NCBI GenBank assembly: GCA_963727775.1
Contig: CAVSHB010000002.1
Location: 352,001 to 416,000 of the forward strand
DNA from: an uncultured Nitrospiraceae bacterium
GTDB lineage: Bacteria > Nitrospirota > Thermodesulfovibrionia > Thermodesulfovibrionales > SM23-35
Direction: 5' to 3'
Length of the DNA stretch: 64,000 bases
The position numbers were made by a program. Positions 15,001 through 30,000 of the stretch are shown piece by piece (positions within the stretch are counted from its first letter, which is position 1; each line of letters opens with the position of its first letter).

Positions 15001-18000
15001 CATGACCGGCACTTCTTCAAATCCGGCAGGTAATATAATCTTTCAGCAGGGAGGTTCACTGATAACATCCGTGGGCTTTGGCAATGTACTGAAAGGGACT
15101 CCGAGCACAACACATCTAAGTATAATGAACACCGGCTCAATAACAAGATACGTCAATACTGTTACTCTGTCAGATCCTGCTTTTATGACGACTCTGAATG
15201 CACCGTTTACTTTAAATAGCGGAGAAACAAAATATTTTGATGTGATCTTCAATCCTACAGCGATACAGTCTTACTCTGCTACTCTGACATTGACGGATGC
15301 ATCGAATAATACGCAGCAGTTAAGCCTCACCGGGGCAGGTTCGTCGATCAGCGTAGGAGTCGATCCAGACTTTCCAGGGACAGTAACCTTCTTTACGGCG
15401 CTTACTTCATCACAACTGCCGGTATCCTCAAAACCGGCCAATTTCAATATCAGCAACGCGGCAGAATTTGTGATAGAAGGTGTTAATCCGGGTTCTTCGG
15501 TCTATGTGAGCATAACATTTAGTAGCCTGCCGGCGTCCCCTGTCTTCTATAAGGTCGTTGGGAACACATGGACAAAGCTTACTGACTATAGTCTGCAAAA
15601 TAATGTGCTGACCTACAGCATAACTGATAAGATCAGCATAACTGATAATAATGGTCCATTTGACAGTGACCCGACACCTGGTAAAATACAAGATCCGATT
15701 GTTGCCGGCAGCACAACCGGCGGTGGCGGCGGCGGTGGTGCTATCCATAACTCAGGCGGCGGCGGTTGTTTCATAGCAACGGCAGCATATGGCTCATACC
15801 TTGACGCGCACGTAATGGTCCTCAGGGAATTCAGAGACAAGTATCTTTTGACCAATGCGCCGGGTAAAATATTTGTAGCGCTGTATTACAAATATTCCCC
15901 GCCTGTAGCTGATTTTATCAGGGAGCACGAAATGTTAAGGACGGCGACAAGATTTGTACTGACGCCGATAGTTTATGGCGTAAAATACCCGTTGCCGGCA
16001 ATGGGGTTACTGTTCTTCAGCATCTCATTTTTCGGCATCAGGAAACGGAGGAGAGATTCTTAATAAGATTAGACTTGCGAAATTGATTGTAATCATAGGG
16101 CTTGTACTTGCCGTCTCGGCTTGCGGCTCAAAGGAAGGCTGCCCGACAAAAGAGACTGTAACGTCGGCAGTGAAGAATATAATGCCTGTGCGCTTCGAGA
16201 TAGTGAGTATCGCGGAAACCAGTCAGATACACGGGATGTGCGAGGTGGTTATTAAAATAGACAAAGAGCCCGTGATTTTTTACACAGACAAGACCGGCGG
16301 ATATTTCTTCTCTGGGAGCATGGTTTCAACAAAGGACAAGACTGATATCACTCAGAAACGCCGGGAGTATTTTAAAACAAAACTGCAATGACCTTCATGC
16401 CCTCCCGTCAAGGAAGGGTTATATTTTTGGTCGAGGATATTTATTGAAATCAAGCCTTTTTTCACATAGAAATATTTTTTATCTGAACGCGCTCGTAGGT
16501 GTAGTCCTTGTCATAGCAACTCTTTTTTTTATGCGGGATATTATTTCAGTCTATGCCGGCAAACAAAAAATCCTTAAGAGAGATGTCCCGGCGTCTAAAA
16601 ATACGCTGACCGGCAGGCAAAAAATGCAGCTTACAGATTATGCTTCGATAATGAAAAATAACCCTTTCGGTTTTCCGGGAGGTGAATTAAAGCCCCTAAC
16701 AGCTTCTTCGACGGAGGCCGATACCCGGCGTGCAGATATTCATCTCCTCGGCACGATAGTAGGACCGAAGGACCTCAGTTACGGCGTTTTTAAAAGCAGC
16801 TCAGGACCGCAGGAACTGTTCAAGGTCGGAGACTCTGTATTCGGTATCGGTAAATTGAGCAAAGTGGAGAGAGACAAGGTGATTATAAGACAGGGGGGTA
16901 AGGCAATAGAGGTACCCATTGAAGATGTGAAGGTGGAAGAGATTAAACAACCGGGCGCCGGAGGGTCACCATTCACCTCTTCTTTTGCCCAAAAGGTGGG
17001 GAAAGATACATATATGGTCGACCAGCGGAATTTACAACAGGCGATCGCCAACCCCGGACAGATAATGACTGACGCAAGGCTCAGGCCGAATACTGTTAAC
17101 GGTAAAGAGGAAGGGTTTATGTTGAGCGAAGTCAGGCAGGGAGGGATTTACAATAGCCTCGGGCTTCAGAACGGCGACGTGCTTTTGAGGATCAACGAGT
17201 ACGACATATCTAATCCGGAAAGGGCCCTACAGGCATTTACCGCACTGAAAGGCATGGACAGGGTGCAGATTGATTTGATCAGAGATGGAGCACGGATGAC
17301 AATGACTTACCAGATAAAGTAATATAAGGCTATTATATGAAAAAGTTAGCGATCTTTGTTCTCATGGTTTTTTCTGTTTTTATCCTCAGGTCAAATGCGT
17401 CATGCGCTCCTGTAAATGCTCCTGCAGCAACGGCTGATCAAACCGCGGAAAAATCTGCTGAAGCGTCTCTGAGTGAAGTCTCCGTCCGGGAATCGGTCCA
17501 TCCTGAGAAAGAGGGCATCAAGGACAAGAAAGTTACTTTTAACTTTGTTGATGTTGATCTCTCGGCCATAACAAAATTTATCAGTGAGATCACCGGTAAA
17601 AATTTTATCTTCGATGAAAAAGTAAAAGGCAAGATAACAATAATCGCTCCTTCAAAGCTGTCGGTCCAGGATGCATACAGCCTTTTTACTTCAGTGCTGG
17701 AGCTTAAAGGGTTCACGATTGTTCCTTCGGGCGTCGCCGTATATAAGATTGTGCCCGCCATAGAGGCGAAACAACGAGGTATGCAGATTTCTACGGGAAG
17801 AGTTCCTGTTAATGAAAGTTATACGGCGCGATTGATTCCCATAAAATATATATCTTCCGACGACGCGCTCCGTTTCCTTCAGCCGATCGTTTCAAAGGAC
17901 GGCCATATATCCGCCTTTGGACCGGGAAACCTCTTGTTGGTGATTGATTCAGGACTGAACCTGGAGAAGGTCCGCTCCATTCTTGAAGTGATAGACCAGC

Positions 18001-27000: not shown

Positions 27001-30000
27001 GATCAAAGGTCTTAAAAAAGGGTTGTTTTATAATCTGAGCGCCGACAGTATAATATTGAAGAGCTCCGGCCTAAAGGTAGTCTCCTTAACCGGTATTCAC
27101 GGAAATATCGATCCTATGAGTCTCGCGGTGTTGCGTCCAAAGGTAATGATGAATGGGAATATCGGCGGGGGGAATTTTTCAGGCACTGTCGGTTTTGCAA
27201 AAAACAACGTGCAGGTGAACATTAATTTTAAGCAGGTCGGCATAAATGAGGCGCCGTTTTTCAGCCAAATCGGTATACGCGGCGAAGGGACTGTTTCAGG
27301 TAAATTAGTTATGACGGACAATAAGGGGAATATTGGATTTGTTACGAAAGACGCAAACTTCGAGCAGGCGAAAATCGCCGGGGTCAGTGTGCCGCTGAAT
27401 CTTTTCCATGCTGTTTCAGGCATTGTCGACATAAACGGTAATCTGCTCAGTATTGGTTCTCTCTTCCTTGAAGGCAAGGATATCAGTGCGAGGCTAAAAG
27501 GTATAATAAAAGATACTGGTATGGACCTTAAGATGGAAATAATGCCCGGCAGATCTTTTGCTGAAAATCCATTATTCATTTCCGGACTCGAAAGATATAA
27601 AATTTCTCCGGGATATTATGTAATCCCTCTAAAGGGCAATCTGTCCCTCTGAGGAGATAGCATGTCAAAGTATATACTGCTTGCACTTATCCTGCTGAGT
27701 CTTGTTTCATGCGGCGGGGATACGTCCGGACAAAAACCCTCAGCTTATAAAGAAGGTGAGATAATAGTTAAATTCAAATCAGGCGCGGATCCAACGCAAA
27801 GATATGTGGCGCATAAAGCTGCCGGAGCGAAATCGGTGAAGACCCTGGGTGATCAAAGGTTTGAAAGGGTCAAGCTGCCTCACGGCGTCACTGTTGCAGA
27901 GGCAATCAAAACGTATACAACGAACCCCGAGGTCGAATATGCCGAGCCTAACTATATTGTAAAGGCTTACAGATTGCCGAATGATGCGCGTTTTAATGAT
28001 TTGTGGGGACTTCATAATACCGGTCAGAACGTAAACGGTACCACGGGCACAGCCGGCGCGGATATCGATGCGACTGATGCATGGGATATCAGCGCGGGTT
28101 CTCCTTCCGTAATCGTTGCCGTCCTCGATACCGGCGTCGATTACAATCACCCCGACCTTAAAGACAATATCTGGAGAAATTCGGGAGAGACCAGTTGCAC
28201 CGACGGGATTGACAACGATAAAAACGGTTATATCGATGACTGTATCGGGTGGAATTTTTTGGAGTCCAATAATGACCCTGCGGACGATAACGGCCATGGT
28301 TCACACATTGCCGGTATTATTGGTGCCGTTGGGAATAATGCCTTAGGGGTTGCCGGGGTAAGCTGGTCTGTAAAGATTATGTCTCTGAAAGTGCTCGATA
28401 ATAATGGAGAGGGTGATATAGCTACTATCATAGAGGCGATATCATATGCTGCCGCAAAGAACGCCGGGATTATCAATATGAGTTTTGGAAGTACCGGGTT
28501 TTCGCAGTCTTTGTATGATACGATAGGAAAATATCCTAATATGCTTTTTGTCGCTGCTGCGGGCAATGAGGGGGCCAACAATGATCAGCCCTCCGTGGCT
28601 GATTATCCTGCGAGCTTCGGCCTGCCCAATATTATTTCAGTGGCTGCAACCGACCAGAACGATAACTTTACAAGTTTCTCTAATTACGGGGTTAAATCTG
28701 TTGATGTTGCTGCGCCGGGTACAGACATTCTCAGCACTATCCCGTCTTTCACTGCAGGAATTACATATAGCGGAACGTACAAGGTGGTTTATTTTTCTTT
28801 TGGCTTTGAAGGTATAGATGGCGCTTTATTGCGCGCGGACGTCATGCGAAGGGTGCTGGAGTTTAACGGTGTTTCACCGGGAGACGGTATTCTTCTCGTG
28901 GATGACGACGGCGGAGACACATATGAGACTTATTATAAGCAGGCCCTTGAGTATCTCGGATATTCGTATGATTATTACATGGTCCCCGTTAATGATGACG
29001 GCCCTGACGCAACCAAACTGAGACAGTATAAACTGGTGATCTGGTTTACAGGCAATGAGTACAGTCCAAACTCTCAAACGCCAACCAATGTGACCCCTAA
29101 TGATCAGGCAAACATCCAATCTTTCCTCGACAACGGAGGCAGGCTTTTTATATCCGGACAGGACATAGGATACGACATCGGTTCCACGAGCTTTTATAAG
29201 AACTATCTCCATGCGCGGTTTATCACTGATGATGCGAACGGATCATTCTACACAGGGCTTAATGACTTCGATGGCTTGTCTCTTGATCTTTCGTCGACAT
29301 ACGGTGACGGAGCGCGGAACCAGAGATCAATTGATGCGGTAAAGCCTGTGGACGGCTCTACGGCTTTTTACATTCCCTATAGCGCCGCCTACCAATTCTT
29401 TGACGGCACATCTATGTGTACGGCAATGGTCTCCGGTGTTGCGGCCCTCGTATCGTCTTATTACAGCGATTTCACCACAAGCCAGATAAAGGGCACGATT
29501 CTGCTTTCCGTTGATGGGCTACCGTCTTTGCAGGGAAGGATACTCTCAGGGGGAAGGGTAAATGTCTATAAGGCGTTGTCTTCACTCATCGCGCCGACTG
29601 ATCTGACCGCTGCGCTTTCCGGGAAACAGGTTGTGCTTGCATGGACAGATAATTCTTCCGGCGAGACGGGATTTTCTATCGAGAGAAAGGAGGCAGGAGG
29701 AAAGTACATCCAAATAGCCTCGGTGCCGTCAAACCAGACGAATTACACAGACGATGCTGTAAAAGCCGGTAAGGCTTATTCATACAGGGTAAAGGCATTT
29801 AATGCCGTCGCCGGTTCGTCATATACCAACGAAGCTTCTCAGAAAATACCCGGCGTCAGCTTCAGCGGAGGCGGCGGATGTTCCAGCGGTAAAACGCAAA
29901 ACGTTCAGACAGCTTTAGCAGACATGTCAGTGCTCTTTATGCCTTTAATGGTTGTCTTCATAATCAAAAGATCAGGAAAAGATTTAAAGAAACCATAATA

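Follow-up and report, generated by a model that had tools for sequence, protein, structure and literature searches.

The type II secretion (T2SS) secretin GspD of an uncultured Nitrospiraceae bacterium ends in a domain of the subtilase propeptide family. This tail is most probably an acquired inhibitor, which protects the envelope from proteases that the cell itself exports, and not a handle for a single cargo. The features concerned lie in the window, a 64,000-nucleotide stretch of contig CAVSHB010000002.1:

9989..16063, plus strand: 2024-aa Ig-like repeat protein with CFI-box-CTERM (NF012200, NF041770)
16444..17322, plus strand: gspC with PDZ domain (NF041515 GspC_delta above cut-off; PF11356, PF00595)
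17337..19589, plus strand: gspD secretin, 750 aa (N0, three Secretin_N, secretin barrel, one helix, propeptide-like tail)
19299..19352, plus strand: lone helix, aa 655-672, joining the last secretin strand to the tail (predicted secondary structure, H352-369 of the model)
19344..19586, plus strand: propeptide-like tail, aa 670-750 (PF22148, fold and Foldseek, alignment register)
19560..19568, plus strand: E742-P743-N744 (conserved across tails; aligned with the propeptide motif)
19674..27652, plus strand: gspE, F, G, H, I, J, K, L, M and N (M and N from weak or sub-cut-off matches plus position)
27662..29998, plus strand: subtilisin-type S8 protease, 778 aa (PF22148 23-97, Peptidase_S8, fn3 644-724)
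27728..27970, plus strand: the protease's own propeptide, aa 23-103 (PF22148 23-97; alignment register)
29858..29980, plus strand: unnamed Cys-CTERM-like sorting tag of the protease (Gly-rich-Cys, hydrophobic helix, basic end)

The genes gspC-D-E-F-G-H-I-J-K-L-M-N span 16444-27652, so that gspD stands in the full company of T2SS genes, and its product is a T2SS secretin by its score with TIGR02517 (527.7 bits against a cut-off of 351.35); a predicted model of residues 304-750 likewise matched T2SS secretins. Pfam recognised N0 (68-138), three Secretin_N domains, Secretin (490-653) and, as the genome-wide survey's note had reported, PF22148 at 666-744 (53 bits against a cut-off of 21). The helix at residues 655-672 may correspond to the S domain's initial part. 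The tail itself is C-terminal, with the stop codon next, and is thus neither N-terminal to nor cleaved from an S8 domain in the same chain. Its predicted model (pLDDT 88) found only subtilase precursors or prodomains among the best 10 Foldseek matches (best E 3e-3), with the Aeromonas chaperone ORF2 (3wqb_B) at rank 43, and matches in the ESM Atlas scored 0.81 or less and were uninformative. The survey's homologue search was also reproduced: of 643 candidates, 489 proteins reached E<=1e-8, and all 120 of those listed combined PF22148 with secretin families.

Residues that serve subtilase binding in true propeptides appear to be retained. In the alignment, K750, the last residue of GspD, falls on Y103 of the neighbouring protease, the P1 position of its propeptide, after which cleavage probably occurs, and E742-P743-N744 is the likely counterpart of the Glu/Asp pair that caps helices in subtilisin propeptides (PMC6993865). 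Among 48 distinct tails, E742 and N/D744 were each present in 47, all extended to +5, and P4 was hydrophobic (M/I/V/L) in 88%. The chain ended exactly at the P1 equivalent (+5) in 22 of the 48, and 47 of 70 free proteins (described below) ended at +5 or +6; the other 26 tails ran past P1, by up to 239 aa, and one tail from a wider set (G055) stopped at +4. In three homologues, the continuation resembled a SPOR domain (23, 20.9 and 17.1 bits; cut-off 21), an indication of a periplasmic location. The tail thus shares its fold, E-x-N/D pair and P1-register end with the subtilase propeptides (PF22148; BPN' 1spb_P, subtilisin E 1scj_B, fervidolysin 1r6v), classed as I9 in MEROPS (PMC6993865), but differs from them in that it forms the C-terminus of a secretin, has no catalytic domain in the same chain and does not arise by autocleavage. 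Relative to local propeptides, it is set apart by Y715, I697 and a bulky P2 (I/M/L), where true propeptides have a small residue. Together, the model and the alignments support a propeptide-fold domain that retains subtilase-binding features.

The protease encoded directly after gspN has a lipobox (Cys17), its own propeptide, an insert of about 200 aa, an fn3 domain and a C-terminal tag, as well as D156, H212 and S584 with N302, the motif residues of family S8. A profile built from the S8 C-termini of 19 relatives gave 56.7 bits on the tag, its sole clear match in the genome. When compared with the NCBIfam sorting models, including the named MYXO-, JDVT- and Synerg-CTERM and CFI-box signals, none of the eight S8 C-termini of this type exceeded a cut-off (best MYXO-CTERM, 15.7 bits against 20), and the other two of the ten tested were CFI-box. 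The slot between pilQ and gspC holds the Ig-like repeat protein here and a second S8 gene in nine relatives. In the 3.43-Mb genome, PF22148 matched only the GspD tail and the propeptide of this protease, which is the sole subtilisin-type candidate partner; the second S8-like gene, presumably a sedolisin (a family assigned by eye), has no PF22148 domain and was rejected as a target.

The survey's note had further proposed that the tail matches this neighbour and holds or inhibits it as dedicated cargo by mimicking its propeptide. The likeness itself was confirmed (25 of 73 residues identical in BLASTP of the whole proteins, E 6e-9), and the mimicry stands insofar as fold, cap pair and P1 stop are retained; the "matching" and the "dedicated cargo" are not supported. 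In identity to the tail, the neighbour's propeptide ranked only 43rd-45th of 98, the corresponding rank across 18 loci varied from 1 to 70, and the tails formed a group separate from the propeptides in quick trees of 77-81 columns and low support. By the same rank and tree groups, we rejected a copy of the neighbour's propeptide as the origin of the tail. The docking of the tail into the protease cleft predicted in that note (ipSAE 0.86) can pass by likeness and is given no weight here.

A profile search with the tails retrieved mainly proteins of 100-150 aa, consisting of a signal peptide and this domain, plus second C-terminal copies on S8 proteases. Among 75 genome loci, 18 of 25 free genes (counted after removal of one truncated S8) were located directly upstream of, and on the same strand as, a gene for a propeptide-bearing S8 protease, and 16 of these 18 had a lipobox-like Cys by a loose pattern; seven of the 25 had no adjacent S8. 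Eleven of the 18 belonged to Nitrospira/Nitrospirales or to loci very similar to each other, and an archaeal one (L141) is questionable. In 47 of 48 cases, the tails matched a profile of 19 free genes next to S8 genes better than one of the same loci's propeptides, and in 41 of 48 they matched it better than one of 17 propeptides that flank the gsp genes in the tails' own lineage. This test is partly circular because the free set was retrieved by the tail profile. Since the 44 sequences of the free-protein search alignment were too diverse, 16 of them were realigned and used. Positions common to the tails and the free family were Y715, I697, E692-R693 and Q/K at P1. By these sequence comparisons, the tail is more akin to the free, exported (lipo)proteins of propeptide-like sequence than to propeptides.

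Of the 95 genomes in the class that encode GspD, 89 carry the tail; in 134 genomes from other classes, it was not found. Where this GspD was present, S8 relatives occurred in 71 of 95 genomes, compared with 11 of 56 where it was absent. An S8 gene lay inside the examined stretch at 13 of 34 gspD loci and after gspN at 11 of 21 resolved loci only. No close S8 relative was found in 21 of the 89 tail-bearing genomes, and of five S8-less ones rechecked with PF00082, four gave no match and one a weak partial match. Conversely, three genomes combine a tail-less GspD with S8 proteases, and in two of them (G164 and G050) no free module was found. The figure of 11 of 21 loci and the occurrence of tail and S8 without each other argue against a dedicated cargo. 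Of the tails from S8-positive genomes, 43 of 46 had an intact E-P-N/D motif, and of those from S8-negative ones, 15 of 23 (Fisher p 0.005, kin not being independent); with family f4 removed, the figures were 43 of 44 and 14 of 17 (p 0.06; regression t -1.5), so that the signal of relaxation is weak. In f4, the motif was broken in both S8-positive members too, and the degenerate tails preserved their length and hydrophobic pattern.

On balance, we lean towards a free subtilase inhibitor that was re-anchored on the secretin ring and traps the cell's own mis-activated proteases. A stand-alone propeptide-like inhibitor would have fused once, early in the class, to the C-terminus of GspD, with the secretin taking the place of the lipid anchor of the free (lipo)proteins. 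About 15 copies would then sit on the exterior of the barrel, beneath the outer membrane and in the periplasm, a position that homology suggests and that suits a guard more than a cargo handle. Each tail may bind an already matured subtilase in the manner of a cleaved propeptide, with the beta-sheet on two surface helices, E742/N744 as helix caps and the C-terminus in the S4-S1 cleft, so that an enzyme that activates before export or is retained in the envelope would be trapped and the secretion machine protected. The likely targets would be the cell's own T2SS-routed, tag-bearing S8 proteases, the neighbour being the target here by default because it is the only subtilisin-type candidate, and the tail would be dispensable for their folding or export. 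Speaking for this reading are the kinship to the free family and the S8-adjacent place of most of its genes, the retained cap pair and P1-register end, the frequent company of S8 relatives and this GspD, the commoner loss of the motif in S8-negative genomes, the SPOR-like continuations, and the precedents of the potempins and SUB1-ProM described below. Running counter to a guard are the mostly intact tails of S8-less genomes (15 of 23, as above), the bulky P2 together with the extension of more than half of the tails past P1, and the S8-bearing genomes with a tail-less GspD. It is also possible, with a clearly smaller probability, that the ring-displayed inhibitor acts as a checkpoint, in which some 15 copies bind matured, membrane-tethered subtilases at the pore and hold them inactive up to their export; control of cargo activity would then fall to the secretin itself.

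Exaptation as a structural module is a more doubtful alternative: a domain descended from the inhibitor family would have lost its action on proteases and would now stand in for the pilotin-binding segment, the latter half of the S domain, functioning in secretin assembly, targeting or stability or as a spacer for a cell-wall-binding SPOR domain. The retention of tails in the 21 genomes without a close S8, the preserved length and pattern of the degenerate f4 tails, the lack of a match to pilotin families in the gsp gene row, and the position after a single S-domain-like helix, where pilotins bind other secretins (PMC6532946), would all fit. However, the E-x-N/D pair and a chain end at P1 or slightly beyond, both of which contact the enzyme in solved propeptide complexes (PMC6993865), have been kept, tail-less GspDs occur in complete gsp rows (G025 and G164), and decay of the motif is commoner where S8 is missing.

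The survey's model, read as a dedicated receptor that keeps the gspN-adjacent protease inactive and passes it to the channel, we consider unlikely. The lone subtilisin-type partner and the S8 genes within 13 of the 34 stretches speak for it, as do the lipobox and Cys-tag, known from T2SS-dependent proteins (bioRxiv 2023.06.07.544157), and the dependence of Aeromonas ASP on the external propeptide-like chaperone ORF2, a fold match of the tail (PMC5638518). Against this, the neighbour's propeptide is not specially alike and is complete in the protease itself, S8 follows gspN at only about half of the resolved loci, and tails without S8 and S8 without tails both occur. In addition, T2SS cargo is thought to enter the secretin through the N domains, whereas the tail would sit outside the barrel. 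No fusion of secretin, propeptide and S8 was found among 63 longer candidates, the single match being without a secretin domain; this is weak evidence, by which we also set aside a remnant of such a fusion as the origin of the tail. An external folding chaperone of the ORF2 type was rejected because the neighbour and the intact gsp-flanking S8s bring PF22148 propeptides of their own, and a C-terminal ligand of the GspC PDZ domain was dropped because the tail ends in K/Q and varies in length. Least probable, in our judgement, is protection of the secretin and periplasm from foreign subtilases of competitors or predators: this would account for the intact tails in S8-less genomes and for the seven free genes without an adjacent S8, and PotA likewise inhibits a host enzyme (PMC9890683), but the other 18 free genes are coupled to an S8 gene of their own, and a periplasmic tail would be poorly exposed to outside enzymes.

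Known systems resemble parts of the proposed arrangement. Stand-alone propeptide-like inhibitors, comprising Plasmodium SUB1-ProM, Pleurotus proteinase A inhibitor 1, yeast proteinase B inhibitor, Arabidopsis propeptide-like inhibitor 1 and TgMIC5 (PMC6993865), share with the tail a propeptide fold in trans (putative for the tail), conserved caps, a hydrophobic P4 on a C-terminus that would reach the cleft, and variable C-terminal length, and SUB1-ProM also shares gene linkage to subtilase genes. They are eukaryotic and free, with inhibition shown, whereas the tail is bacterial, is part of an outer-membrane channel and is a predicted inhibitor; its free relatives, unlike the tail, are small gene products of their own. 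The potempins of Tannerella forsythia are upstream-encoded lipoprotein inhibitors that protect the envelope (PMC9890683), the role proposed here for the tail, and the PotC-mirolase pair has the layout of the free relatives, a small lipoprotein gene upstream of a secreted protease; PotA takes no part in the secretion or maturation of its protease. Potempins differ in their beta-barrel folds, standard-mechanism inhibition by PotC, the T9SS, surface location and lack of fusion to a secretion channel. ORF2 of Aeromonas sobria (3wqb_B; PMC5638518) is a bacterial trans partner that inserts its C-terminus into the active site of a secreted subtilase, but ASP has no propeptide and folds via this separate protein, whereas the S8s here have their own. 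GspD/EpsD/ExeD with a C-terminal S domain (5wq8, 6i1y, 6i1x; PMC6532946) have the same N0-N1-N2-N3-secretin architecture, but with a pilotin-binding helix where the chain here, after one helix, enters the 80-residue folded domain.

We found no description of a secretin-propeptide fusion in the literature searched, which lay mostly outside subscription journals and comprised main texts. For the C-termini of secretins, the known roles are structural or lie in pilotin binding, and stand-alone propeptide mimics have been characterised mainly in eukaryotes. Since an 80-residue domain is simple to express and assay, the question is directly testable, and the tail may also serve as a stable natural scaffold for subtilisin inhibitors. 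The fusion also draws attention to propeptide-like lipoproteins that share operons with subtilases, a family as yet unstudied in bacteria, and an enzyme-inhibitor domain on the C-terminus of a secretin would couple the control of proteases to the export pore.

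The complete gsp row of the window runs directly into a protease gene, and the surrounding genes are arranged as follows (window positions).

16444-27652, plus strand: complete gsp row, gspC to gspN
27662-29998: S8 protease gene, starting 9 bases after gspN and followed by aroC
31462-31758: BrnT-family toxin ORF, after aroC
32696-34081: IS1380 transposase, after aroC
34169-35242: IS110-family transposase, after aroC
Slot between pilQ and gspC: a 145-aa lipoprotein-like ORF, a 2024-aa CFI-box protein and a DsbC_N-like 102-aa ORF

In the stretch upstream (4366-16391), a pilM-N-O-P-like row and pilQ (pil names given by eye except for the secretin match) lead straight into the gsp row; the exported proteins encoded between pilQ and gspC are variable.

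We found that GspD (750 aa; TIGR02517 score, 527.7 bits) carries a PF22148 domain at its C-terminal end (aa 666-744, 53 bits; Pfam), and that the neighbouring protease contains the same domain (aa 23-97; Pfam), with 25 of 73 residues identical between the GspD tail and the protease propeptide; the genome has no further PF22148 match. The genome-wide survey's note, which had described the secretin as ending in a subtilase-propeptide domain resembling the protease propeptide, was thus borne out, and our homologue search returned its figure of 489 matches (among 643 candidates), with secretin and PF22148 together in all 120 of those listed. The structure predicted from 41 tails (pLDDT 88) has the order strand-helix-strand-strand-helix-strand, and the top Foldseek ranks went to entries for Tk-SP, fervidolysin, subtilisin BPN', subtilisin E and a convertase prodomain, none below E 0.001. 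The secretin-propeptide fusion is a real, conserved and undescribed domain fusion; a search of mostly open-access literature, covering listings and the starts of abstracts, found no description of it.

Among 41 close genomes, this GspD was present in 34 (35 loci) and the tail in 33, the tail being cut by an assembly gap in G011 and by frameshifts in G017. In the class set of 151 Thermodesulfovibrionia genomes, 95 contain this GspD and 89 of these the tail (86 with a match reaching the tail, plus G110, G142 and G165 added on an inspection that left out G048), and GspD is tail-less in G025, G164, G041, G047 and G050. Named relatives belong to the Thermodesulfovibrionia/Thermodesulfovibrionales and other Nitrospirota, and the tail query gave 0 matches at E<=1e-12 against 134 genomes of families outside the class. 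The simplest reading is a single fusion early in the class, followed by a few losses.

A model of aa 304-750 (mean pLDDT 64, which does not fix the orientation of the tail) matches T2SS secretins and places a single helix (aa 655-672) between the last barrel strand and the tail. In three homologues, the tail is followed by a SPOR-like domain, a domain type that binds peptidoglycan. Because the top rim alone enters the membrane in solved secretins and their C-terminal S domain serves as the binding site of lipoprotein pilotins (PMC6532946, in excerpt), and because of the SPOR-like domain in these homologues, the most likely place of the tail is in the periplasm, on the outside of the channel. 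A Lol-sorted lipoprotein inhibitor would occupy the same site. SPOR-like domains lie past a long linker after the tail in the GspD forms L013, L015, L016, P0003 and P0027, and the tail also continues through a long linker in G063, G080, G093, G112 and G046.

The note had further proposed that the secretin holds or inhibits a dedicated protease cargo. The linkage of protease and gsp genes had been left uncounted in the note. Of 34 gspD loci fetched from relatives, 21 show the gene after gspN, which encodes an S8 protease in 11 cases, once on the opposite strand; 9 loci have a second S8 gene ahead of gspC, and in 13 of the 34 the fetched stretch contains an S8 gene at any place. Genome-wide, 71 of the 95 genomes that encode this GspD have a close S8, versus 11 of the 56 that lack it, and the S8 protease therefore travels with the T2SS. 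A close S8 was missing from 21 of 89 tail-bearing genomes. PF00082 matches were absent in 5 of 33 in the near set and weak in 2 more, and five further tail-bearing, S8-negative genomes rechecked with PF00082 gave none in four and a partial one (43 residues) in the fifth, these genomes being MAGs, so that absence of S8 is not proven, with G039 and G080 single contigs. Conversely, G025, G164 and G050 have S8s and a tail-less GspD. In likeness to the tail, the neighbour's propeptide ranks only 43-45 of 98, and over 18 loci such propeptides rank from 1 to 70, so the special match claimed for the two was not upheld, and a dedicated pair is not supported. We consider it improbable that the tail is a dedicated cargo receptor; the tail would not sit on the route thought to be taken by cargo.

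Besides a propeptide of its own, the neighbouring protease carries a lipobox (Cys17), the triad D156/H212/S584 with N302, a ~200-aa insert, fn3 and a C-terminal tag. The insert (aa ~365-572; window 28750-29380) interrupts the S8 domain ahead of the catalytic Ser and had no Pfam match here, with a weak MAM-like match in one relative. The tag (window 29858-29980), ordered Gly-rich-Cys, hydrophobic, basic, is common to gsp-flanking S8s of 19 relatives and occurs once in this genome; none of the named sorting models run on it exceeded the cut-off. Since GlyGly-CTERM and MYXO-CTERM proteins require the T2SS for surface arrival (bioRxiv 2023.06.07.544157, in part), the likeness of the tag makes the protease plausible as a surface-anchored T2SS cargo. 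It is the sole subtilisin-type candidate target in this genome. A 1062-aa secreted protease, sedolisin-like by eye, with fn3 and repeated C-terminal domains (G000:C1:961903-965091), is a possible second T2SS cargo.

A profile from the 41 tails gave 5080 matches among 1.84 billion representatives, and the best 150, which were examined, are mostly proteins of ~100-150 aa that start with a signal peptide, often contain a Cys and end in a PF22148-like domain; 5 of 42 longer proteins scanned are S8 proteases with a second C-terminal copy. A pattern search from 16 such free proteins found at least 75 loci among the matches listed (best 80), containing 65 ordinary S8s, 12 secretins and 26 free ORFs, of which one, a truncated S8, was dropped. 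Among the 25 listed free ORFs counted, 18 are followed directly by a propeptide-bearing S8 gene in the same orientation, another 4 precede gspC-gspD by ~2 kb, and the remaining 3 have no such neighbour. Because 11 of these 18 are closely related (Nitrospira/Nitrospirales), they represent ~5 or 6 independent cases.

L073, L074, L075, L089, L098, L106, L109, L111, L114, L121, L131, L133, L134, L136, L141, L142, L147 and L067:5104-5463: two-gene module, a free PF22148-only exported/lipidated gene and then a complete S8 (hosts: Nitrospira, Desulfobacterales and others)
L077, L080, L084 and L092: free PF22148-only gene ~2 kb (2-3 genes) upstream of gspC-gspD

In the latter four loci, GspD is tail-less in the three where it is complete, and no S8 occurs in the stretch covered. 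The only candidate free gene seen in the near set is in G025, whose GspD is tail-less (one case). Tails and free proteins have Y715, I697, E692-R693 and Q/K at P1 in common, where local propeptides differ. Tails scored higher on the profile of the free proteins than on that of propeptides from the same loci in 47 of 48 cases, and higher than on that of gsp-flanking propeptides in 41 of 48, a partly circular comparison, as the free set was reached via the tail profile. In a quick tree, the free copies of L067 and L142 nest in true propeptides, which suggests that the free modules may have more than one origin. The G025 copy also groups with true propeptides. Second tail-like PF22148 domains occur at the very C-terminus of the S8s P0019, P0021, P0033, P0040 and P0080, and of one at L028:7727-10219, after a CFI-box, within a gammaproteobacterial gsp cluster. 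PF22148-like proteins without S8 occur in Methanospirillum (L025:9848-10567; L030:5935-6732, two copies), and P0006 and P0063 have up to 10 such stretches per protein.

Solved propeptide complexes show two enzyme helices capped by a Glu/Asp pair close to the propeptide end, with the C-terminus filling S4-S1 (PMC6993865, in part). Of 48 distinct tails, 47 keep E742 and 47 keep N/D744, the counterparts of this pair; every one extends to the P1 register, 22 of them ending precisely at it, and 88% have a hydrophobic P4. P2 is bulky, and true propeptides differ; SUB1-ProM breaks its enzyme's S2 rule yet inhibits (PMC6993865, same portion). We compared 24 tails of S8-negative genomes (23 counted, G127 left out) with 46 S8-positive ones, the latter comprising those first fetched and a selection from the class set. 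The motif E-P-N/D was intact in 15 of 23 versus 43 of 46 (p 0.005), or, without family f4, whose two S8-positive members are degenerate too, in 14 of 17 versus 43 of 44 (p 0.06). The mean profile score was 74 versus 89 bits (t -2.3 after correction for core divergence; -1.5 without f4). These sequence differences hint that constraint on the tail may have relaxed after protease loss. A structural or assembly role for the tail appears rather unlikely, and defence against foreign proteases very unlikely.

We lean towards the reading that the tail derives from a free subtilase inhibitor and acts as an envelope guard. An inhibitor from the free family would have been re-anchored on the secretin, where it would protect the envelope from those S8s that the cell itself routes through the T2SS, the candidate here being the neighbour. 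Potempins, lipoprotein inhibitors encoded upstream, offer a functional precedent: PotA has a protective role at the surface, and neither secretion nor maturation depends on a contribution from it (PMC9890683, in excerpt). In the ASP-ORF2 system, ASP lacks a propeptide (PMC5638518, in part), whereas the neighbouring S8 has its own. What is new here is the set of counts that speak against a dedicated pair, together with the link from the GspD tail to the free family.
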